A stretch of 64,000 nucleotides of DNA, from assembly GCA_037379345.1 (NCBI GenBank), contig CM074514.1:10850001-10914000 (forward strand). The letters are read 5' to 3'. Below, in pieces: positions 21,315-58,339 of this stretch (position 1 is the first letter of the stretch; each line of letters opens with the position of its first letter). The notes beneath the pieces were generated by a model. It had not been told where the DNA came from. It saw only the letters and a program-made list of their open reading frames with translations, and did not search any database. Position numbers and translations under genes: made by a program. Source of the stretch: Perna viridis (taxonomy: Eukaryota).

Positions 21315-21643
21315 TTGTTTCTTGTTACTTTATTTTACCAGCAGCATTCATGACTTGTAAATGTGTTTTGGATTTAAAGTTCATGCGAGATAGCTCTAAG
21401 AACAAATATTGTCTATGTTGTCTGCTCATTTAAAAGTAATTTAGTAAAAATGGATGGAACAAAGAAATTACAGATGTGAATACAGGGCAAGATTTCAGAT
21501 TGTGACGTAGTTAACGTCTTTAATTCCCCGACTTAACAGATGGAATTGATATTTTTTTCATAATTAAGTTTTCTATTGTATTATGTTATAAAATTCGCCA
21601 AACGATTCCTGATTGATTCGTAGCTAGAAATTCCAATTCTATT
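21315..21643. repeat. Left copy of a 329-bp direct repeat flanking the LINE (putative target-site duplication)
   Basis: Matches 24638-24966 at offset 3323 with 4 substitutions counted by eye and no indels. Confidence 0.93.
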
Positions 21644-24637
21644 CATTCATTCTTTAATTCCTCAAAATAGAGATGACATGAATTGCAATTACATAATTAC
21701 AAATTAATTAACACACAAATAGGAAGTATTAAATAATAATAATAATAATGAATTGTATTATTAATTCATATCTATATACAAGTAAAGTGAGCAAGACATG
21801 TTCGTGTACTGGTGACATTACATGCATTAGCTACAAAAATGTATTGCAACAACGTAAGCATCTTAAATATTCGCCTGTTGACTTTGCAATATGGATGTAG
21901 CAGAGTCGTCTGAATTCATCTATATCGGAATCACAGAGTTCAGTGGAAGTTTTTCTACCGAGGAGAATTCGGACAAGCGATTCATCATCATACTCGCTTA
22001 GTTCTACGCACAACTCTAGAGGAAAATGTTCAATTATAAGGTCCATCCAAACATTAAACAACTCTGAAGTACTTGTACAGTTTTGGGTAGCATGGACAAG
22101 CATGTCGGTGAATATTTGATCACATAATTTACATGATTGTTCGATTAGGTTTGGTACAGAGGAAATGTATTTAGCAATAATGTGAGCGGTACGCAGATCA
22201 AAGCAGTTTGTAGGGTACTTCCAGATGTCAGCAACAGCAATGGAATTGTGGATTTCTCTGAATCGACTAAAGCCACTATGTGAGTCTATACGTGTTTTCC
22301 AGTCATTATCATGTTTTGTATGAACCGCATTTACCACCATGTGTTTCCATTCTAATTTGCCAGGAAAGTCACCGTCTCTGATAAAGATCGCAAGGCATTC
22401 GTACAGGTTATATTTGATTAAGATATCTAAAATATCCTGGATAAAGCCTATGCGATTTCGATTGTCTGTTAGGCATGTAAAAAGTCTGTGTAGGAAGATA
22501 GTTTTCGCCAAGCAGCTATTATCCAACTTGCAAAGTTTGCCGAAGAAATAAAGTTTGCGTTTTTCGATTTCACTTGTTATGCTGCGTAACCCAACCATAC
22601 TTTCGCAAATGTCCGATCGTGTGAGTGTGCTGAACTTTTGTGCATGTTTGACAACAAAATGTTGAAATCTATTTAGAAGTGCTAGCTCGGTATTCGTTAA
22701 ATTGTTCCATACTTCACAACCGTATAGAACGGTGGGTATAACAACAGATCTATATAATTTTATAAGCACTGACGGATTTGTATTTCCACATCTGATATTG
22801 GCAATTGCAAAATAAATGTTTCTACCTTTCCTACAAACGTTCGTTGTCCTTGAGACTTAAATTTACCATTGAGTTCAATCCCTAAATGCACATGGCTTTC
22901 TAAAATTGGAATCATTTCCTGGCTAACTGTCCATTTTAAGTCTGATTTTACGAACGATTTAGAAAATTGTATCACAAACGATTTCTTGCCATTGAACTGA
23001 AACCGCCACTTATTCGCATATTCGGTGCACACATCAAGCATTCGTTGTAATGCTTTAGGTGTTGTAGCAATGCATGTAATATCGTCAGCAAGCGAAGGGG
23101 CACAACATTTTATACTATTTACACCTGTTACCTGATTAGAATTACACAGCTCATTGATTAAATCATTAATAATCACAAGATATAAAAAACCAGATAACAC
23201 ACCACCTTGCCTTACACCTTCATTTACTTCAAAATACTTCGATTTGCATTGATTCACAATAACCGAACTTTGTGTATTACTATATAACATATTTATACAA
23301 GACCAAGCTTTACCTTTAACACCTAAGCTACAAAGTTTGACCATAAGTGCTTTGCGCCATACCGTATCAAAGGCTTTTCTATTGTCTAGGAATGCGGCAA
23401 ATACTTTACTGTGTTGTTCAATGTTATTATAAATTGTTTCAAGGAGACAAAAGGACGCAGTCAGACAACCCAGACCTTTCTGAAACCCGCGTTGCAGTGG
23501 ATTTGTAAACGTTCCTGGTATTATCACGAATGTTTGTATACGTTGGAGTAGGAGTTTTTCAAATGTTTTCAACACACTGGACAAGAGACAAACGGGTCGG
23601 TAACTGTCAGGGTGTGACTTAAGCTTGCCACCACCTTTAAATAACGGAACCAAAAGACCCTTTCGCCAATCACTGGGTAATTCACATTTAGATATCATGG
23701 TATTTAGAAAAACTGTGAGGCATTCAATTAGTTTCGGTCCGCCAAAAATTAAATGTTCATTTTGAACCAAGCCATTTCCACTTGCTTTTCTACGTTTTAA
23801 TTGTTTGATAACCGCCGCAACATCTTCGTCAGTTATGATACCACCGGGTAAGTATTGTTCTTTAACAACGTCACACACAGTTTCAATGTCGTCATACATT
23901 TTATTCACTTCACGGAATGTTGATTCGTTAAACATAGAAGTATCGGACGGTGTATATAAGTCTTTGAAGTAACTGGCAAACGCATTACAAACCGATTCGG
24001 GGGTATTATGAACAGTGTCATTAAAGTTTATCTCATGGTACACCTTTGACTGTTTTGGTTTCTGTCGCTTTATAAGTTTCCAAAACAACCTTATATCACA
24101 TTCAGCTGCATTGTTTATATCTTCGTATGTCTCTTCCATATATTGATCATGAGCAAGTTGCTGTATATTCCTAAAATTACATTTCGCTCGTTTATAATTA
24201 AAGTAAGACGGATATTGCATACCCCTTGGTCTACCATCCTGCAACCATATTTTACGCATTTCACGTTCTTTACGATGCGCTGTTTTAACGTCTGCATTCC
24301 AATACGGTTTCGTATATGGATTGAATCTGTTACATGGTATTGATTCTTTTGCCGCATCAAGTATCGTAGTCACCAAATCCGAATAAAAAGAATCTATGTC
24401 TTTGTCGTTGTGTTGAAGATCGTGTATAAGTCTATTTAACGGTTCACGAAGACTGTCTTGGTATCTACGCACATGCTGATCGGTGACTTTGTGCCACGAT
24501 GGCAACTTCGAAAATTTGTTTGACTCAATATGAATATTTTCTTCTAGCACAACGGATGCAATAACGGGCAGATGATCCGATGTCGAACTGAATGTTCCTT
24601 CTTCGAGAATTTCGTATTGTCTTAATTGTCTGACTAA
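21644..24637 (-). mobile_element. 5'-truncated non-LTR retrotransposon (RTE-X-like LINE) with the C-terminus of an AP endonuclease, RT and a Cys-His domain; one frameshift near 22850
   Basis: Endonuclease end motif SDHLPV (~24563-24580). RT motifs YRPVCLLSSVLKTFE, FLDNRKAFD, GVRQGGVLS and LADD in ORF 22760-24550. The continuation ORF 21831-22769 has LYGCEVW and CKLC-x9-H-x4-C. 3' UTR ends in ATTAAA(GAAT)n at 21644-21659. Clade assignment is from motif recall, not phylogeny. Confidence 0.92.
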
Positions 24638-24966
24638 TTGTTTCTTGTTACTTTATTTTACCAGCAGCAATGATGACTTGTAAATGTGTTTTGGATTTCA
24701 AGTTCATGCGAGATAGCTCTAAGAACAAATATTGTCTATGTTGTCTGCTCATTTAAAAGTAATTTAGTAAAAATGGATGGAACAAAGAAATTATAGATGT
24801 GAATACAGGGCAAGATTTCAGATTGTGACGTAGTTAACGTCTTTAATTCCCCGACTTAACAGATGGAATTGATATTTTTTTCATAATTAAGTTTTCTATT
24901 GTATTATGTTATAAAATTCGCCAAACGATTCCTGATTGATTCGTAGCTAGAAATTCCAATTCTATT
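24638..24966. repeat. Right copy of the 329-bp direct repeat flanking the LINE
   Basis: Starts exactly where the LINE is 5'-truncated and is near-identical to 21315-21643. Confidence 0.93.
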
Positions 24967-26159: not shown

Positions 26160-26365
26160 AAAATATGGGTAAATGAGAACAGATGAAACAGAAACTATTT
26201 ACATACACAATTAGAATAAAGATTACCCATAAAACTGAAGACAAGGGAAACAAGACGTCACACTAGCAATATGAACTCCCACACAAAAAAACTGGGAGTG
26301 ACATCAGGTACTCCGGAATGGTAAACATGTCCTGCTCCGCCAGCGGCACCCACCATATTTCAAGT
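26160..26365 (-). mobile_element. Divergent subfamily copy of the Penelope-like 3' UTR structured element
   Basis: Reverse complement AATATGGTGGGTGCCGCTGGCGGAGCAGGACATGTTTACCATTCCGGAGTACCTGATGTCACTCCCAG...TGGGAGTTCATATT aligns with 47182-47282, with compensatory changes. Confidence 0.7.
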
Positions 26366-29810: not shown

Positions 29811-30156
29811 TATGGACTCGTGGATCGCTATGGTGTATCCATCTGCACCATGAAAACTGATTTATTCAACGGTTCATAGTCTTTCTTTCCGGCTTTGTCT
29901 ATCCCGGACTTGACTTTTATGAGCAACTCGGCGGGTGTTTCTAGAAAAACAGAGGACGCTTACCCTACCGGTGCACCTGGTCAATGCTCCCAGTTTTTAG
30001 TGGAGTCCGAGTTGCTCATTTGCTTTTGTTACTTTGTATGTATGATTTTAGTTACTTTATGTTCTTTGTTGTGTATGTCTGTTTTCCATGTCTGGTCGTT
30101 GTCCTCGGATTGCATTCTTTTCATTACCGCTATAACCTAGGTTCCCTTGATTACTC
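29811..30156 (+). mobile_element. 5'-truncated copy of the Penelope-like element (RT C-terminus plus structured 3' UTR)
   Basis: Closely matches 47075-47423 and has the same 3' terminus CCCTTGATTACTCT. Confidence 0.9.
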
Positions 30157-33774: not shown

Positions 33775-34620
33775 AACTAAATCTGATAACCGATTTGTTC
33801 ACCGTGTTACGGTTTCCCTCTTTCTTATAGCCACCTCGTGACATGTAATAAATAACTCGATAAGTATTGCTAGAAAATTAGAAGAAATTTTCCAAACGGA
33901 TGCGCCCCGTGCAGATCCGGGTGTTAAAAGAATAGGCCTGCAGCAGCGCTAAGCTTGTCGTAAAAGGCGACTAAATAGTGCTCAGAACCCTAGCCGGGGG
34001 CTAGGGCGCTCTGCCCACAGAGCAACTGGGATGTGTGCCCCAGGTGGTGGAATGGGGTACCCTTGGCGTGTTACATGCTGAGGTTGTCAGGCTATAATAC
34101 GGAAAACCTGACCGCAAACCATAGTGGTGCACAGTGTTGGGAAAGATGACACGTTCCTCGCACGTTAAAGAACCCTACTGTGGTATTCTCCTGAAGTAGG
34201 AACCATAGAGCTCCGCCACAGGAGGCTAAATTGCCCGACCCTACCCACCTCTCCCTATTTTCTAGGGCAATCAAAATTTGTCGACCCCATTGTCTTTGTG
34301 TCCCATCCCTTTTTCATTTCATAATCACTTCAATTTATCATCAATGTTCATCGTCTGGATATAGCTGAAATATTGCTGCTCGGACGTTAAACCCCAACGA
34401 ACAAACAAACCCAACGGATGCAGTCGGTCCCAGTTTTCAGTGGAGTCCATGTTGTTCATTTACCTCTATATCTATGTGCGTGTTATTTTTGTGATTCATG
34501 TTCTTGGTTGTGTGCGTCTTTTTTTTTTAATTCGTTATCCATGGATTATGTTTCTTTTTACAATCATCCGAATCCTTTTTTCGTTTTATTCCCCTTTAAA
34601 ATATTTCATTTGCTCTTTTG
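33775..34620 (+). mobile_element. Old degenerate copy of the Penelope-like 3' end, split by a SINE insertion
   Basis: 33849-33903 (AATAACTCGATAAGTATTGCTAGAAAATTAGAAG...ACGGATGC) and 34413-34460 (CCCAGTTTTCAGTGGAGTCCATGTTGTTCAT) join to a decayed version of 47182-47282. Confidence 0.65.
33904..34412 (+). mobile_element. SINE-like non-autonomous retroelement, copy 1 (structured non-tRNA head, V-SINE-like core, (CAAA)n tail)
   Basis: Near-identical to 37111-37620 and 51336-51859. 9-bp TSD AACGGATGC at 33895-33903 and 34413-34421. Tail GGACGTTAAACCCCAAC(AAAC)n. Confidence 0.92.
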
Positions 34621-37092: not shown

Positions 37093-37741
37093 CCAGGCGT
37101 CGGTTTCGTCGCCCCGTGCAGGTCCGGGTGTTAAAAGAATAGGCCTGCAGCAGCGCTAAGCTTGTCGTAAAAGGCGACTAAATAGTGCTCAGAACCCTAG
37201 CCTAGTTGCCCACAAAGCAACTGGGATGTGTGCCCCAGGTGGTGGAATGGGGTACCCTTGGCGTGTTACATGCTGAGGTTGTCAGGCTATAATACGGAAA
37301 ACCTGACCGCAAACCATAGTGGTGCACAGTGTTGGGAAAGATGACACGTTCCTCGCACGTTAAAGAACCCTACTGTGGTATTCTCCCGGAGTAGGAACCA
37401 TAGGGCTCCGCCACAGGAGGCTAAATTGCCCGACCCTACCCACCTCTTCCTATTTTCAGTGGCAATCAAAATTTGTCGACCCCATTGTCCTTGTGTCCCA
37501 TCCCTTTTTCATTTCATAATCATTTCATGTTCATTTTATCATCAATTTCATGTTCATCGTCTGGATATAGCTGAAATATTGCTGCTCGGACGTTAAACCC
37601 CAACAAACAAACAAACAAACACAAAAAGTCGTAGGTGTAAAATTGATCGTAAATCATGACGTCACAATGCTATTTTAGTTTATGATGTCATTACTTCCGA
37701 TCAATTTTACACTTACGACTTTTTGTGAAATTGACGCCTGG
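37093..37741. mobile_element. Palindromic MITE interrupted by SINE copy 2
   Basis: The left arm CCAGGCGTCGGTTTC (37093-37107) + ACAAAAAGTCGTAGGTGTAAAATTGATCG (37621-37649) is the inverse of CGATCAATTTTACACTTACGACTTTTTGTGAAATTGACGCCTGG (37698-37741). Confidence 0.85.
37111..37620 (+). mobile_element. SINE-like retroelement, copy 2
   Basis: Same 5' start GCCCCGTGCAGG and same (CAAA)n tail as the other copies. A short internal deletion removes one hairpin arm near 37200. No clear TSD. Confidence 0.92.
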
Positions 37742-45527: not shown

Positions 45528-48500
45528 TTACAGTCCAAGTCTAGCATTGAGCCATCTTCTCATCATGTAAATATCAGTGTAGATATCAGCCTTGTCAGGA
45601 CGAGCACAGTCAATACCCCAGCTAGTTACTCCTAAAAATAGTTAAAGCACTAGTAAGACTACAGGTATAGCATTGACTATGTTTGGTATTGTTAGCCGTT
45701 CTCTCAGCTGGTGAACTTGTAGCTGGAGTTTTTAACATATACGTGCAGTATTAAGTAACACCCAATGTTAATGCTGGCACTTTTTCTTTGAAATTTGATT
45801 CCGATATCACCTTAAAAAAATAACCATTTGATCTAGTTACTTACATGAAACAAACCAGGATGTGGCATTTAGTATGTGGATGAGACCGGTGACAGATAAA
45901 AAAAAGTTTATAAGTGTCATTTATCAGCATTAAAAAAAATCGCAATCATCACACTAAATATTTAACCGCTCAATCTTTTGAAATAGTCTATAAACAGTTG
46001 GGATAATCTCATTTCAAATTAATGAATACAGAAGTTACAAACGGTTTATCTTTTCGGTCTGAACGAAAATATCATTGACATTGGAAACATCGCAAGAACA
46101 AATTCGGTCATCAATATGTAAGAACAGACATCATGGACACAGACTGAATGGGTATGGACGGTAATACCAAAACAATAATACTGCAAACCCGATTACAATT
46201 TCTAAAATAATTATTTGACGTAAAATCTACATTGAAATTCTACAAAAATAAATTACGACTTCACCTACATTCCAACTGACTAAATTTTCAGAAAGTGAAA
46301 CTGTGAACAAGCACAAACAAACAGAAATCCCACTGTGTATTGGGTTCCCAAACTTTACAAATCACCTTATCAATATAGATTTATTTCCTCTTCAAACCAT
46401 TACTCAACAACCAGACTTTCTATTTTACTTACTAGTGAGCTCGATTCCATAAAAAAATCTTATTATAAATATTTTTTTACATCAAAATATGGAATTAACT
46501 ATTTCTGGAGTGTTAAAAAAACTCACTTAAAGTGCTTGGTAAATTACATGACCATGTGGGATCTTTCGAATCTGCTCAAAGTTTTGATTTTTCTACCTTA
46601 TACAATACACTTCAACATAATCTCATAAAACAAAAATTTGCAGATCTTATCAAATTGTCCTTTGGTGAATCGGGATGTGAGAATATTTTAGTAACGAAAG
46701 AAATAACCACATTAATTAGACTTCTTTTGATGTACTTACAGCACAGAGTTCTGGTAAGACAACATTTTTGTTCGCTTTGGGGATACCGTTTATCGTTAAA
46801 GTATTGGAATTCCCATGGGGACCATTGTGCACCACTGAATGTGGACCTCTTTCTGTCTTGTTACAAAACACAATTTATGGCTAGAATAGATAAAGAACTT
46901 TCCATTGATGACTTCTCATTCAGATCATATCACATCTCATACGTCATGCCAGAGCTTGCCGAAACTACGCAGACTTTTTGTATCGCGCTAGAACTCTAAC
47001 AAATAGGCTTCTGGAACAGGGTTATGTTGCTACAAGATTGAAGTCATTACTACAGAAGTTTTATGGTCGTCATCATGAACTCGTGGATCGTTAAGGTGTA
47101 TCCATCTGCACCATGAAAACTGATTTATTCAACGGGTCATAGTTTCCTTTCCTCCTTTGTCTACCCAGGACTTGACTTTTTATGAGCAACTCGGCGGGTG
47201 TTTCTAGAAAAGCAGAGGACGCTTACCCTACCGGTGCACCTGGTCCATGCTCCCAGTTTTTAGTGGAGTCCGAGTTGCTCATTTACTTTTGTTACTTTGT
47301 ATGTATGATTTTAGTTACTTTATGTTCTTTGTTCTGTATGTCTGTTTTCCATGTCTGGTCTTTGTCCTCCTTGGATTGCATTCTTTTCATTACCGCTATA
47401 ACCTTGGTTCCCTTGATTACTCTTAAAAACAACGTTTGGTAGAAATATTTTAACACCTTCTGATGTTTTGACGAAATTTTGGATCTTCAAAACGAAGACT
47501 TCAATATTTATACTAAAGAAACTGAGCATATATTGATAATAAGGAATTCCGTTTCTTGATCTTAGTATTCATATCCTGAATGGTAAACCTAATACTAAAA
47601 TGTACGATTGAAGGGATGATTTTTCATTACCTACTGTTAACTATTCGTTTTCAGATGGTGACGTCCCTTTGCCACCATCATTTAGTTTCTTTCGATTTGC
47701 TCGTATTTGTAACAAGGTTTCGAATTTTAACGAAAGAAATATTTACATAAACGAAAAATTACTACATCAAGGTTTTTGATTACACAAGCTCGTAAAAATA
47801 ACCGATAAAAGGAACTCATTCTCAAAATACAGATATAAATGATAAATACGTGCAGCTATCTCCCATCCTATATTTTATGGGAATATTCTTCACTAAGTAC
47901 GGAAAGCTCAATACTCAGCCAAAAATTGATTAAACCATTGAATATGCTAATTCGTAAAGGATATTGTTATGTTATTGTTGTCAAATCGTTTAAGATGGCA
48001 TTTTTAGCCCACTTGGCGTCCGTCGTCGCTGACAATGTTTCAAAAATCTTCTCCTTCGAAACCACTGGACCAATAAGAACCAAGCTATGTATAAATGTTT
48101 CTTGGGGTATTCTGCATAGAAATGATGTGGTGATTTTTGATCTGTCGAAAAATATAGCCACCGTTACTAAAAATAGAACACAGGGGTCAGACAGAAGTTT
48201 TTCGTATAAATGTTTAACATGATGAGATCTATCTTGGATGTTGGAGTTATTCCTTGTTCTACGTTTTTTTTTCTTTCCCAAATTTTCTCTGACATTACTT
48301 GACCAATTGGAATCAAACTTGTTTTGAATGTTCTAATTATAACTGATATGGGGATTTTTTATCTGTTGAAAACATGGCCGCCGTTACTAAAAATAGAGCT
48401 AAAGGGTTAGACAGAAGATTTTTAGCATTTATCTCCTTAACTCTTCAGTTAAGCCAAATTCTGATTGGGTAACACGGTTAAGCATGATAAAATCTATCTC

Positions 48501-51500
48501 TTGTCATTTTTTTGTGTTAATCTGTTAGGCCAGGTTGTAATTATTGCCTTTTTTTGACGTTCGTTCTTTATTTTTAATATTATTTTTTTTTAAATCTTCT
48601 CCTCTGAAACTACCAGACCAATTAGAACCAAACAAGGTAAGAATATTCCTCAGGTACTGTACATAAATCAAATGTGAGGATTTTTTATAGTTCGAAAAAC
48701 ATGGGCGCTGGTACTAAAAATAGAACAAAGGGGGTAAGTCAGTTTTTCTCATCCATCTCAAAAACTGTAAGGTTTAGCCAAATTATTTCAGTTGCCGAAA
48801 TGATCCTTATTATAAGACCTACAAAAGTCTGCAGGGGGGTCAAAGTTGTCGGAAGACTCCTTGTCAGAGTTATTGCCCTTGAAAGGTGAAAAATTACGTT
48901 TTTATCGTTTTCAGCCAATATCTGGAAATCTATGATAGAGGGAAAAACTTTCAATTGCTGAAATGATCTTGTAAGGCTTACAAGTCTGCAGGGGATCAAA
49001 GTTGATGGACGATTCCTTGTTAGAGTTATTTCCCTTGAAAGGCGAAAACTGATGTTTTTAGCAGTTTTCAGTCATTGTCTTGATAACCAATAAATAGAAA
49101 CTTTCAGTTGATTAAATGATCCTTATGGTAAGTCGTACCAAAGTCTTCTTGAGTCAAAATTGTCGGACAACACCTTGTTAGACTTAAATCCCTTGAAAGG
49201 CACAACTTTAACCAGGTGAGCCTCTTGTTTTTATTAACATCGATTCGCAAATATGGCCTTTACAAAGACACGAACACACTATATTTAAAAGCAGTTTTCG
49301 GCATGACATGGGTTGTGTCCTTATTGTATGACTTATGATATAACGTGATTCTCAACCCCGTATGAGAGGAACTGGAATCGATATTACATACGGAGAGGGC
49401 ATAACTTTTTGTAGGTTTAAACTGGTATGGAGCTAGCATGTCAGTTAACTACTAGAAGTCCTTTGCATAATCAGTCTCTTTCTTTTTTTGTGTTAACAAG
49501 GGAACTTTTTGAACTGGTTTTAATGTCATGTGGTATGAGGGTTTCCTCGTCGTTCATTGAATACCTATGAGTGGACTTGAGCTGCCATTTTTCATCCCGG
49601 TGGGGGTTGTTGTCTCTTTGACATATTCACCATATTCATTCTCGTTATATCAATCCATTATCTGATTATATGCCATTTGATCTGAAGTGACATATCTACT
49701 GTTAATCAACCATTTTACGCTTCAGGATGCGAAAAATGCTCGCAAAAATAAGTTACTCTATGTAGATTGTACATTAACCTCTCAGTTCTAGACAAAGTAC
49801 ACTTAGCTGCGCACCACAAAACATTACAAAAATTCGTATGTCTGAGAACAGTCTTAACTTCCATGGTAAAACCAAACATAATATTTGAAATTCATGACGT
49901 CAGAAACATTTAAGAACATTCTTAGACCTAAGTACTAGTTTCTTTTCTTTTTGTTTAAGTTTTGCGGTGCCGCATGGGACCAGTCTCATTTCTGGTAAGA
50001 AACATAAATTGAATAATTACTAGAAACTGCTTACCATTTAAAACTAGATTGTTTCCATCTTTACAAGCTAATGGTCCACCAACATCTCCCTGCGAGAGAA
50101 TAAATCAGTTAGATTGTGTTGAAATTTTAATTATATCCCCGGTTTGACAATGATTTTTATTATACGCCCGTAAATGAAGTATGGGTATATAGGTTTCACC
50201 CTGTCTGTCCGTAGGTCCGACCGTCTCTCTGAACTATTTACTAAGCAGATTGGAACATTTTATGAAACTTAGTGGGGTGAAATATAACCACATGGATATG
50301 TGGATACTGTCAGGAATTTATGTTTGGACAAAAATTGCAAGAACAATGGATTTTGAACTTGGACGTTTTTCAGCAAAACTTCGTCAAATGCAATGCTCAC
50401 AACTCCTTTACCTTATGACTTGCGGGATTGTTATGAAATTCAATGGAGTGTTAGATTACTATATGGAGATGTGCATTTTGTCATGAATTAGTCATATTCT
50501 GTAATCGTGTTGTTAAAAAGTACTGATTGCAGTCTTCGTACGTATTCTTTTGTTTATTGTTTTGTATTTTGTTATGTGTGTGTGTGTGTTTTCCTGTCTG
50601 GAGCAAACTGTGTCAAAAGTGCGTAGTCTATCCACCATGAAAAATTATGTCCAATATAAATCATGTCTACACTGGTTCCCAAATGTACATGGTTTAACAG
50701 GCTAAGATTATTTTTATAAGAATTTAGAGTCAATAAGTAGCACTCCATCTAAGAATCATGCAAAATGTGATTCATGTTTGGAAAGCCTACATATTTTTAT
50801 TTTTTAATATTTTGTTTGAAATATTATAGTAAACAGTTAATAACATGTGGCTTTTCATATAACTATTACCCTTGTTAATGGGAGATAAAAGTATACAGAA
50901 TGTACTGATGGATAAACAATATAGAGAGATGATTATACAAACGACACTAAAATGCAATAGAAACTATTGGATTTTCAATATTTTATACCTTATAAGTATC
51001 TACACCGCCTTCTCCCCAGCAGGTAATAAAAATGTCCAAACTGTCCTCAACGCCTCTCTTTTCGCCGCAGATCATGTTAAACTTGTGAAAATCGCCGTGT
51101 GGAAAATCCATGTAACATTTTACATCTGGGTAAAGCTCTACTCCGGTGTCCTTGAGACCTTTCATAGCCATTCCTGTGGGAAATAGTAAAATGACAACAC
51201 ACAAGCTGATACATATATTAAAAACGATTTTTAAAAAATTCAAAACCACCAAGTGAAATAACATATGTAGCTATGTCTGAATAAAACCTAGTATCTACTG
51301 TTTGACCTTACAACGCATGTTTAACTTACTGAATTATCCCCGTGCAGGTCCGGGTGTTAAAAGAATAGGTCTGCAGCAGCACTAAGCTTGTCGTAAAAGG
51401 CGATTAAATAGTGCTCAGAACCCTAGCCGGGGGCTAGGGCGCTCTGCCCACAGAGCAACTGGGATGTGTGCCCCAAGTGGTTGAATGGGGTACCCCTGGC

Positions 51501-54500
51501 ATGTTACATGCTGGGGTTGTCAGGCTATAATACGGAAAACCTGACCGCAAACCATAGTGGTGCACCATGTTGGGAAAGATGCCACGTTCCTCGCACGTTA
51601 AAGAACCCTACTGTGGTATTCTCCCGGAGTAGGAACCATAGGGCTCCGCCACAGGAGGCTAAATTGTCTGACCCTACCCAACTCTCCCTATTTCCAGTAG
51701 CAATCAAAATTTGTCGACCCCATTGTCCTTGTGTCCCATCTCTTTTTCATTTCATCATCATTTCATGCTCATTTTATCATCAATTTCATGTTCATCGTCT
51801 GAATATAGCTGAAATATTGCTGCTCGGACGTTAAACCCCAACAAACAAACAAACAAACAAACTTACTGAATTGTACATAGAATCCAACTCTTAATATTAT
51901 TTACTTACTTACTGTGTACATGGAGTTAACGCGGGAAATGTTTTCAATGGATATCAATTTTGGTCGTTATCGTGATTTAGTCAAACTATGCTCGATTTTA
52001 AAGTCTTAATAAATTGTTATTTGTTTTTGTTAGAAACTTACGGTCTTTACTAAAATTCTTAAACTAAAACTCCCCGAACATAAGAAATGTTGACACGCAC
52101 AGATGTACATGTAAGGCATTCGTGTTAGGATATATGCTGTATAACCAAATAACAGTATGACCCGTTGAAGTACTTTTTAATACAATGTTCAGACTTGTCT
52201 ATTAGTACATGTAGGTGAAAAACATAGAGGGATTTCTTGTACGAACTGAGAGCAATATATATAGTGGATATTTTGCACACACGTTGCCACTAATGAAACC
52301 GAGTTTATCTGACTAACGAAACTTTTCTGAAATTCTGGCTTAAATCAGAAAATGACACTCGAGTTTTTTTCAAAAAAAGTTTTGCAAATGTGCGATACAC
52401 AGGTGTTTATGTCTTGAATTCCGGCATTGTGAGTATGCCATAGCATGCATTACTATCACGTTAAAAAAAGATATGAAAGTAGAAATGCAACTGAAATAAT
52501 ACTAGAAAGATGACCAACCTCCAATAAACGTGAAAGGACGCCAGTTAGAAATAATACAGTCCTCATTGATGTAGTTCACACTTGGTTTACTGGTGAGTTC
52601 AATAGGCTGTACACCTGGGTTTGCTACAACATCCTCGGCTAAATAAATGATGGCTAGGTCGTTATGATTGCTCGAACGGTTATACTCGGGGTGAAATATA
52701 GTTTTCTTTGCTCTATACGTGTGTTCGTATATTGTCAAGTTTTGCTCAGTGGACATTGGGTAATATTTGCCGACTACTACTTCAGTTACAGTTAAGTTAT
52801 CAAATTCCTCCAACCTAATTGAAAAACGAGTAAACTGCCAGACTAAGTAAATTGTACACGAACATTAATGTACTAAGAAAATGTGAATCAATACAAATTA
52901 CAGACAAGACATATACACGACATGACTATGTTTTATTGGTGACAGTTTTACAAAAATACTCGAAAAGGCTAGTATTTGTTACGACAAAAGGGTTGATTCG
53001 CAAAATACAAGTGCTTGAATTTACAAAAGAAACTTGATCCGAAATAAACTAACCATGAATTAAGTTCTCGGTTTATTTGTTATTGTATTGTATAGTTTTC
53101 TGAGGGCGTTTTCCAAACGCTTTTGAATTTTTTTGTTACAAGTATAAGCATGGGTAACTTATCACGTCCAATTTTTTTTCACATTTATTTCAGTTCCCCA
53201 TGTCTAACCTCAAGTTAAGATATTCAGAAAGAGCTTAAGTATGGAGATCCTTTACTTAAGCACAACAGAACAACGAAATATTGTCTGCCTTTCATTCTTA
53301 TCAATTATCTTCGAATTTTTTTTTAATGCAAAAAATGTACTTTTTTTTAATTAGGCATTGTTTCGCAATAATTTTAGAAAACCCATTAAAAAAATCTTTT
53401 ACGGTAAAACAATTATCCTAACATGTCTTAATTTCTTATGACTTAAAGATAGGAAGCTCAACGACATTAACAATGTATCCTATAGGTCTGTGGCTAACAA
53501 TACAAACACTTACTTGAAACAACTAGCAGCTGTAAGAACGACAATTTTATCATCTCCTGTACGTACCAAAGAACCACCACAGAAACTGTGATTGTCCTGA
53601 TATTGGATGGAGACCTGAAATGACGGTCTTTAGTCTAAGTTAATAATGTTTCAAATATAATTGCTTGATGTACTAAATACACGCGTCATATTCATCTTAA
53701 AACGATTTTTAGAAAATTCAATATTTTTTCCTAAGACTTAATCTTTATTTTACCATTACAGCTCTTCATTAACTTATATTAATCTTACATTTTTGATTGT
53801 TTGTTTTGTCCTCAACTCATTCACTCAAGTGAATTTACAGTTATTAATTACAATGTGTAGTGTCAGCACAATGCAACTGCATCTTATATGTATAAGTTAT
53901 TAGCCATAAAAAAGTATGCAATAGTAAGTTTTAGATACATGTACATGTTGTATTCTTGCGACCTTGAATGTAATGCCCGCCTTCTAGGACTTGTAATCCA
54001 CCTTCATTCCTCGAATGAAAGTGTGATATTTTTAATGTTATTGCGGTGAAAAATCCAACAGACTAAAAATTACAATTTGCATGTTTATGTTACATCCTTA
54101 CAAATTCATTTTGGGGACATTTTTAGTTGAAATGTACGCAACAAACCTAGATTATCATTCTTTGCATTTTATCAAAGGTTATTCGGTTCATCAGATGGAC
54201 CGAAAACATACACGATGCTTTTATAACACCTTTATTAAGGTTCCACTAAAGTCAAAATCTAGGACATTAACTAGACAAAATACGTCATTTTTTCAAGAAT
54301 GCAATTATTAACAACTATATTTTGCAAATGATATAAGTGTAAACATCAATTTTAAAAGACGAGAAAGGTTTTTGTTTGGAAATGCAAAAATATTCTTAAA
54401 AACCTAGTGCAGTGCAAGCTACCACTAACTTGTAACAAATTACTAGATTTAAATAAAAATTCAGATATTTTTGTCTGTATTGATGTTGGTAACTAGCTGG

Positions 54501-57376: not shown

Positions 57377-58339
57377 CACGTATCATTTCGGGGATTTTAT
57401 TGTCCTCCGGGTACTCATTGTATGGGATTTGATTTTTCGCTCACTAATCATGTCTTGTAGTACTATTTTATAGTAAATTGTTCTCTATGATCATTTCACA
57501 AGACATGAACCACAGACGTTAAATTTACAAATTTGGGGAAAATTCTAAAGGTTTTATCAAATCTTATTCTGCCATATAATTTACTGCATAGTTGATTGAC
57601 ATTGAACCAACTCCTTTATATATTTGCTTATATCAGATCTTGAATTTTTTAGTAAGAATGTTTTTTTTTTTCAGATTGACTTGGACAATATTTTTACAAA
57701 ATAAACCCTCTTTGACAGCAAACTGGCTATTCACGTTGTTCCTTTCTTTGTGAGATATACAACTAAAGCTGTCAGATTAATGTCTATCGCCATTTAATCC
57801 ACTTGTTCAAGGTTTTATACATTAACATTTTCAATAATTCGTATGATCACATTTTATATTGTAATTGCTTTAACCATTTTTATTATAATAAAAGTTTATT
57901 GTTATCATTTTTGCAAACATGTCGTATTGTATATTGTACATATGTCTTAAGTATTCGATAATTATATACATGTACAAAAACAAAGAGGAATTCAATATAA
58001 GTTTGACTGTTTGATTAGTCAGTTGACTGTAGTTTTTTGCCATAATGCAGATAGCAAGAATTTCAGGTTGAGCCTAAATTTTAATGAAGCAACAGCCCGC
58101 AGGTGGTCGTGTCATCCAAATCCAAACCCTAGTATTGTGAGGATGCTTTATCATATGCCATGTGTTTCCAACACTCAAGTCAAGCACGCTAACACGAGAC
58201 ACGAAGTTGTTACATAAGGAAGGAAAACATTTGTTTCCAACAGAAAGGGAAAGTAGGAAAAGTTTAATCGAGATAGTCGGTGGCTGTTTCTAGAAAAGCA
58301 GAGGACGCTTACCCTACCGGTGCACCTGGTCCATATTCT

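Follow-up and report, generated by a model that had tools for sequence, protein, structure and literature searches.

The closest described relatives of the RNA reported here are the minimal dimeric hammerhead ribozymes of Penelope-like elements (PLEs), in which palindromes allow the ribozyme to act, slowly, as a dimer (PMC4209133, PMC6765202). For the Naiads, a clade of PLEs, the parts of the describing paper on which we draw report no canonical hammerheads and mention the selenocysteine insertion sequence (SECIS) as the sole RNA of the 3′ untranslated region (UTR) (PMC8557442). Here, we describe a motif at 47182–47282 of a 64 000 nucleotide (nt) stretch of the Perna viridis genome (contig CM074514.1, positions 10,850,001 to 10,914,000, forward strand; ‘the window’), located in the 3′ UTR of a Naiad copy. 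The motif is a real, previously undescribed and probably dimeric structured RNA, and we hold, with a little more confidence than doubt, that it is a candidate dimer-gated self-cleaving ribozyme of undescribed architecture.

The motif runs in the order P0, CGGGUG, palindrome 1, RNCAG, five variable bases, GCUYACYC, palindrome 2, CACCYG, five bases complementary to the variable ones, an optional P3 and the second strand of P0. P2 crosses P1, so that the core is a pseudoknot, and about 20 core bases are near-invariant. Relatives were collected with a search pattern that fixed conserved bases only, giving 129 matches (at least 122 metagenome loci and 7 genome loci) that were clustered by their flanks alone into 33 clusters; the families counted here are those among the matches listed. 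The 25 low-GC clusters (119 matches) were scored as families and the eight high-GC clusters (10 matches) served as controls, with one medoid each and none dropped. A separate alignment of 29 rows, hand-picked after viewing, holds the window copy, 24 of the 25 medoid families and four further rows. The parts of the motif are as follows.

47182–47194, forward strand: 5′ strand of the closing helix P0, 13 bp with 47270–47282, with no linker to P1
47195–47200, forward strand: P1 5′ strand CGGGUG, near-invariant and also in 12 published consensus sequences; set by the search pattern, which therefore gives no independent test of its conservation
47201–47210, forward strand: palindrome 1, 10 nt (8 in two families), a predicted intermolecular helix with covarying pairs
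47211–47215, forward strand: conserved strand R-N-C-A-G, the first position a purine in 25/25 families and the second G in 21/25, with CAG set by the pattern
47216–47220, forward strand: P2 pseudoknot 5′ strand, variable in sequence, with 4/5 pairs in the window family
47221–47228, forward strand: conserved strand GCUYACYC, with a candidate scissile Y/A at 47224/47225 suggested by likeness to twister-sister
47229–47236, forward strand: palindrome 2, 6–8 nt, flush with P1, a predicted intermolecular helix; innermost pair Watson–Crick in 21 and G-U in 2 of 25 families, second pair 22 and 1
47237–47242, forward strand: P1 3′ strand CACCYG, whose sole variable pair is G-U in 25 and G-C in 4 of the 29 rows
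47243–47247, forward strand: P2 3′ strand, with no linker after P1
47249–47269, forward strand: P3 hairpin, variable, and replaced by a 4–5 nt linker in two families (L162 and L181)
47270–47282, forward strand: P0 3′ strand, pairing with 47182–47194

Within the window copy, P2 pairs GGAC at 47217–47220 with GTCC at 47243–47246. The best P0 helix begins directly at the core in 23 of the 24 families scored, about six of them with a distant partner chosen by script.

The strongest evidence for the fold comes from covariation across families. P2 is Watson–Crick paired in 22, 22, 25, 23 and 18 of the 25 families by position, palindrome 1 in 24, 24, 24 and 22 of 25 and then 18 of 23 from the centre outwards, and palindrome 2, in the better of two registers, in 21, 22 and 18 of 25. 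The P2 total is 110 pairs where permutation gives 53.5 on average, and the corresponding figures are 48 and 18.3 for the two innermost pairs of palindrome 1 and 43 and 19.5 for those of palindrome 2; in each case 0 of 5000 permutations was as high, the permutations ignoring the relatedness of families whose flanks are mostly unalignable. The eight high-GC control clusters paired at chance level. In the 29-row alignment, 94% of cells are paired and the covariation of 0.636 compares with 0.170, a value that none of 500 shuffles reached, while slid controls gave 0.08–0.13. A model built from 29 relatives recovers the four whole cores of the window, among which compensatory changes occur only in the copy at 26299. 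P1 varies solely between G-U and G-C, and is supported by geometry and by the crustacean variant Naiad_EuTe rather than by covariation.

The motif is read on the sense strand of the Naiad reverse transcriptase (RT). A Naiad RT end lies upstream on the same strand in 37 of the 119 low-GC matches, and the opposite arrangement was found in none. Across the three variable helices there are 23 G-U against 7 A-C pairs on this strand, an excess that points to RNA. The 101-nt stretch folds at −39.3 kcal/mol. It beats all of 200 shuffles on the sense strand (z −3.3) and on the antisense strand (z −3.7) alike, and folding energy alone therefore gives no strand; with flanks (141 nt), z weakens to −1.5 sense and −1.8 antisense.

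Both palindromes argue for pairing between two copies. The innermost pair of palindrome 1 is Watson–Crick in 24 of 25 families, with central bases AT in 14, CG in 6 and TA in 4; these neighbouring bases covary yet cannot pair with each other within one strand, which is the reason to invoke a second copy. Predicted hairpins of the palindromes reach 0 to −2.6 kcal/mol against −3 to −20 kcal/mol for the homoduplexes, and co-folding, in a model without pseudoknots, prefers the dimer in 25/25 families by 1.8–16.6 kcal/mol. Two motif copies therefore most likely pair through their palindromes. In such a predicted dimer, P1 of each copy would have the inter-palindrome segment of the partner copy next to it, giving shared half-sites.

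The sequence-only reading from which this work started had proposed a multi-hairpin or cloverleaf fold. Its 13-bp closing helix, GGGTG/CACCT helix, conserved TACCC and GCTCC/GGAGT hairpin are all in place, and its central claim, a distinct and functional RNA that covaries and is neither a canonical hammerhead nor hepatitis delta virus (HDV)-like, is supported well beyond the window across 25 families. The evidence nevertheless favours a pseudoknotted core with two intermolecular palindromic helices over its fold. The proposed inner hairpin TTTCTAGAAA is a full palindrome that forms no stable hairpin in nearly all families, and each pair of the alternative ACCGG/CTGGT cloverleaf is kept in just 6 to 15 of 25 families. 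From the AAGC/GCTT hairpin, the fourth pair survives in only 15/25 families. A 3-bp RGC/GCU, a candidate stem closing the P2 loop, is kept in 21/25 and 25/25 with no two-sided change. P2 and palindrome 2 had been missed. The motif had also been placed directly at the RT stop codon; the closing helix actually begins 39 nt past the TAG at 47140–47142.

Other pairings and other sources of matches were considered and rejected. An extension of P1 into palindrome 1 pairs in 15/25 families only, a CAG with CYG pairing is broken in CACCCG variants, and GGGUG with YACYC as the main helix allows both pyrimidine changes but is broken in Naiad_EuTe and Naiad-1_Pfla. In viral contigs, the first pattern matched three times, in a tandem repeat and in phage coding sequence, with no Naiad RT relative, and none of 92 distinct matches to a looser pattern had 5/5 P2 pairs; they behaved as chance. 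Six of seven matches in prokaryote genomes were high-GC chance matches, and the remaining one, on a 407-nt contig with a Naiad RT end, fits the published Naiad_Pmar motif and is read as contamination. Separately, related copies on contigs of about 50% GC (L126, L168, L197, L204, L209 and L213) have no RT homology in the available flanks, and their host is possibly non-animal. At L215:3-146, the motif follows a ubiquitin C-terminal hydrolase domain (Pfam UCH, E 4e-9) at a distance of about 130 nt, either as an insertion in a host 3′ UTR or in an element with a protease domain.

The host of the motif is a 500-nt, 5′-truncated, dead copy of an abundant Naiad family; its start at 46925 or later and its end at 47424 are common to other copies of the family.

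46925–47424, forward strand: dead Naiad copy, the final ~70 RT codons and the 3′ UTR, 92% amino acid identity to residues 549–619 of the open reading frame (ORF) of family copy L223
47140–47142, forward strand: family ORF stop codon TAG, after DLFNGS, where the ORF ends here and in 12 long copies examined
46329–46924, resuming at 47552–47776, forward strand: older diverged Naiad RT remnant, 25–43% amino acid identity to L223 residues 243–495 and, downstream, 37% to 501–581
29930–29985, forward strand: second whole core of the same family, 52.6 bits, 94% identical over 350 nt
58279–58334, forward strand: core-only fragment of the same family, a match to the relatives-based model
26299–26354, reverse strand: core from a second family of Naiad type, in which P2 shows a compensatory change, 36 bits

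The window copy carries a premature TAA at 47092–47094, and this young copy appears, from the RT pieces of 25–43% identity on both sides, to have inserted into the older remnant. That the host is a PLE had been suggested from the letters alone, and longer family copies place it in the Naiad clade, for which an N-terminal GIY-YIG endonuclease, CxC, GxKY and DKA motifs, a C-terminal RT and partial tandem or inverted copies are diagnostic (PMC8557442). The GIY-YIG region, absent from the truncated window copy, is recognizable by eye with an upstream zinc-finger-like motif in the decayed frames of family copy L231; DCSC (CxC), GPKY (GxKF/Y) and DKA precede the RT in the 619-amino-acid frame of L223; and in long copies the ORF ends right after the RT thumb. 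5′ truncation, partial tandem (pLTR) and inverted copies all occur. The Pfam RVT_1 match of the family RT is weak (E 0.01, under the cut-off). One element (L231) has a whole motif at each end, 4.7 kb apart.

The earlier count of at least six copies in the window is corrected to four whole cores (47193, 29930, 58279 and, on the reverse strand, 26299) and two fragments near 34408 and 43504 with the 3′ part only. In the 723-Mb genome, the core pattern has 10,542 exact matches and the pattern of the element’s 3′ end 18,008, with 0 matches for either reversed control; the second Naiad-type family with the compensatory P2 change is found genome-wide (among 227 matches).

As a fold, the motif fits no known family tested, but its likely role has a known analogue. 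Against Rfam 15, nothing in the window matches at the gathering score, and the motif gives no match at E 5 (20 loci) or E 10 (161 nt). No description of it was found in the literature searched, including the parts of bioRxiv 10.64898/2026.07.22.740005 on which we draw; much subscription literature and many figures were outside reach, and an earlier description is therefore possible. The motif already sits in the supplementary consensus sequences of PMC8557442, the main text of which has 0 matches for ‘palindrom’ or ‘HDV’.

With the dimeric hammerheads of PLEs, the motif shares the class of host element, the place in a terminal repeat or 3′ UTR and a palindrome that needs a second copy (PMC4209133, PMC6765202). 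It differs in having two palindromes instead of one and a pseudoknotted core with an invariant helix, and in that cleavage is here only predicted; neither the motif nor any of the 29 aligned rows has CUGANGA and GAAA boxes, and the four such strings in the window are all more than 15 kb distant. Twister (RF03160, RF02684) offers a similar layout, with an outer helix, an inner helix around two optional stems and a pseudoknot formed with the strand that directly follows this inner helix on its 3′ side. Twister also has a UAA loop, which the motif lacks, together with all of the P4/L4 consensus, and no twister match was obtained at E 10. HDV-like ribozymes resemble the motif in a second P1 pair that is G-U or G-C followed by G, and in a GCUYA strand after a helix. 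Their nested double pseudoknot with P3/L3, P1.1 and the J4/2 cytosine is absent from the motif: there is no P3/L3, no room for P1.1, P4 or J4/2 before the pseudoknot strand, since the P2 3′ strand abuts P1 without a linker in all families, and the position immediately 5′ of the wobble is occupied by an invariant C that is paired, in continuity with P0. Pistol, hatchet and hairpin ribozymes gave no Rfam match at E 5–10 and did not fit by eye on consensus features. A SECIS element is also a poor fit, the AUGA being fully paired in P0, which varies freely; the L223 ORF has no in-frame stop, TGA included, in its 619 codons.

The argument for self-cleavage comes from what other Naiads hold in the same place. 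We viewed by eye the 3′ ends (300–600 nt each) of 42 of the 54 consensus sequences in the PMC8557442 supplement, a few names being taken from file order. Twelve carry the motif (Clytia 1 and 2, five bivalves, four hemichordate families and one fish), and Naiad_EuTe has a variant retaining P2 and palindrome 2, which brings the total to 13/42 in five phyla, from hydrozoans to fish. Twister-like cores were recognized in eight (Mley, Chem4, Movir1, Mgal, Bpla, Mphi, Scon and Mmer), hammerhead boxes in either order in 11, and nothing in 10. Thus 19 of the 29 ends without the motif have a twister-like or hammerhead-like core in the same region, often with palindromes, and no second ribozyme core was seen in the viewed part of the 13 that bear it. 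The assignment to twister is based on the Rfam twister-P1 consensus, from which Naiad-1_Movir departs at a single base of the P4/L4 block. These twister-like motifs have palindromes too, and sister Naiads appear to carry palindromic twisters, of which we found no report for PLEs in the literature searched. Because sister elements appear to hold known self-cutting RNAs in this very spot, self-cleavage is favoured among the roles that had been proposed, and the motif is likely to be a self-cutting RNA as well. Finding several ribozyme classes in one kind of place is how twister, twister-sister, pistol and hatchet were found (PMC6765202, PMC10085705). A role in priming, also proposed, is unsupported because insertions end about 140 nt downstream of the motif.

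Several further features of Naiad 3′ ends were observed. A second, older Naiad-linked motif (L385–L399) combines a twister-like P4/L4 block with two palindromes, the order being circularly permuted, and is of the type of the eight twister-like consensus sequences; its pattern has 142 forward matches in this genome against 2856 for the reversed control, which is therefore uninformative, and twister was unmatched in 15 of its decayed loci at E 5. Some hammerhead boxes are permuted, with GAAA before CUGANGA, and some have a very long stem II; families with hammerhead boxes that lack an HHR flag in the authors’ table include Amil, Anas, Plae, Obim and Ppla. The Clytia families Naiad-1/2/3_Chem share an additional conserved stem-loop, located upstream within the 3′ UTR, and in three Chlamys families a hairpin region is opened by the same CGGGUG.

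Under the favoured reading of a dimer-gated ribozyme, the two copies would come either from a single tandem transcript, as its two terminal repeats, or from separate RNAs sharing a particle, and would form the two intermolecular palindromic helices. Each half-site would then combine P0, P1 and the P2 3′ strand of one copy with the CAG-P2-GCUYACYC strand of the other; once two pseudoknotted half-sites had formed, the dimer would cut the RNA and free a unit-length transcript. This transcript could then be copied or religated, a route already put forward for dimeric hammerheads in other PLEs. Religation would explain why the motif is kept whole in genomic copies, as would the use of RNA that had never been cut, for which the anole PLE gives a precedent (PMC11167929).

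The active site may resemble that of twister-sister (Rfam RF02681). The G-C-U-Y-A and C-A-G strands of the motif correspond to seven conserved loop bases of twister-sister and the twister-sister-like LINE-1 and OR4K15 ribozymes (PMC5660989, PMC11620745); the bases C6, A8, G9, G59, C60, U61 and A63 are highly conserved or essential in twister-sister (PMC5660989). All seven have invariant counterparts in the motif, and the tolerant C62 corresponds to the variable Y at the would-be cleavage position. The cleavage strand G-C-U-N-A is present as GCUYA in all families, GCUYA having been set by the search pattern after it was seen in published consensus sequences. The pair on the P1 side of such a loop is kept in 20/25 families with no two-sided change. 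A twister-sister-like catalytic loop formed by the CAG and GCUYA strands, with a predicted cut at Y/A 47224/47225, remains a tentative and on balance doubtful proposal, because three features of the class fail and the RGC/GCU stem explains the same bases about as well.

A number of observations weigh against cleavage, or against this form of it. The twister-sister strand G5-C6-N7-A8-G9 is lacking, N-C-A-G being one base short (no A7) with G in 21/25, and G5A kills twister-sister (PMC5660989); in place of the two-stem loop with SL4 there is a 5-nt pseudoknot strand on the P2 side and no SL4. The LINE-1 variant A12C, which pairs the equivalent position, is nearly inactive (PMC11620745), and the Naiad_EuTe variant breaks the counterpart of G9-C60. 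Turning to the neighbouring elements, the tally of 3′ ends is a by-eye judgement over the lengths given, Naiad-1_Chem has the motif yet is flagged HHR_core by the authors, L399 matches Rfam twister-P1 weakly (14 bits, E 1.6), and twister-P5 matched none of the 79 candidates scored of 8367 in this genome. Structured RNAs near ribozyme-rich places sometimes do not cleave (PMC6765202). The invariant P1 sequence fits protein recognition equally well. Finally, cleavage has left no footprint in genomic 5′ ends: those of 91 truncated copies, out of 92, are spread along the element, 15 of them falling in the initial 50 nt of the core but none from +29 to +31; among 30 further loci 16 end within the core, none between +27 and +37; and no pile-up was seen by eye among the 100 matches listed. 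This last point is weak counter-evidence, because in the anole PLE, too, read ends do not coincide with the hammerhead site (PMC11167929).

The alternative that comes nearest is a non-catalytic dimerization and recognition signal, which would loosely resemble the dimer signals of retroviruses or the pseudoknot of telomerase RNA. Naiad RNAs paired by their palindromes would present the core to the Naiad RT, with two templates per particle, and this would explain the partial tandem and inverted insertions. Such a signal is compatible with all the structural evidence and with the missing footprint, and an invariant helix sequence suggests protein contact. In the anole PLE, moreover, the protein is a predicted dimer and the hammerhead is dispensable for insertion in vitro (PMC11167929). 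RT-less motif-bearing units with exact terminal duplications of 95 and 63 nt (L145, 796 nt, beside (GATA)n, and L150, 987 nt), possibly non-autonomous, retrozyme-like derivatives, fit either role. We nevertheless consider a pure dimer or RT signal unlikely, if well worth keeping in view, for 29 of the 42 Naiad 3′ ends do without the motif despite homologous RTs and 19 of these have known ribozyme cores by eye; exchange with hammerheads and twisters is unexpected of a protein-binding signal. In the anole PLE, too, the RNA required for activity is found within the first 172 nt of the ORF and not in the ribozyme (PMC11167929).

The remaining explanations leave more unaccounted for. A structural regulator of RNA fate that blocks nucleases, stabilizes the 3′ end or controls export or translation, and dimerizes incidentally, would suit the 3′ UTR position and the compact pseudoknot with its zero-length linkers, and some Naiads do have a SECIS just past the stop codon (PMC8557442). 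It is improbable, as it leaves the central self-complementarity of both palindromes unexplained, and the motif has neither an AUGA/GA SECIS core nor an Rfam match, nor is there an in-frame TGA in the L223 ORF. Palindromes are natural in DNA, and two inverted junctions lie, by eye, at or beside them, two points in favour of their being read by the endonuclease in double- or single-stranded DNA; that they vary freely, tolerate sense-strand G-U, covary along with the pseudoknot and lie about 140 nt from the element’s end makes a DNA-level signal very improbable. Least credible of all is a functionless hairpin in a repeat. Most genomic copies are indeed dead and near-identical by descent, and z with flanks is only −1.5 on the sense strand, but compensatory change over 25 families and five phyla with unalignable flanks refutes it through the covariation counts.

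Elsewhere in the window, older Naiad RT remnants of 25–43% identity to the young family lie at 2–968, 46329–46975 and 47552–47776. At the 3′ end of the young element (47385–47424), contigs of four sequencing runs, which cover the motif, show joints reaching back 38 nt, and a truncated Naiad copy at another locus (L360, C1:259805-259877) is joined on its 5′ side to TTAGGG repeats. Non-LTR-type RT ORFs of 630 and 341 amino acids, with an endonuclease-like start, occupy 21315–24966 on the reverse strand between two 329-nt direct repeats that are 98.8% identical. Another repeat, of 510 nt, has three copies at 33903–34410, 37110–37621 and 51338–51859 (92–93% identical), the first of which abuts a Naiad fragment beginning at the equivalent of base 47225.

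About ten natural classes of self-cleaving RNA are known (nine plus one proposed; PMC10085705), and if the favoured reading is true, the motif would add a further class worth noting, its fold new and its chemistry possibly so. The gap left by PMC8557442, in the available parts of which a very successful clade of PLEs stands without canonical hammerheads, would be closed as well. Naiad 3′ UTRs appear to hold three exchangeable types of RNA, most of them with palindromes, a pattern suggestive of dimer-gated processing throughout the PLEs. Even without cutting, a dimer element with two palindromes that spans five phyla would be a handle on the origin of the partial tandem and inverted insertions of these elements.

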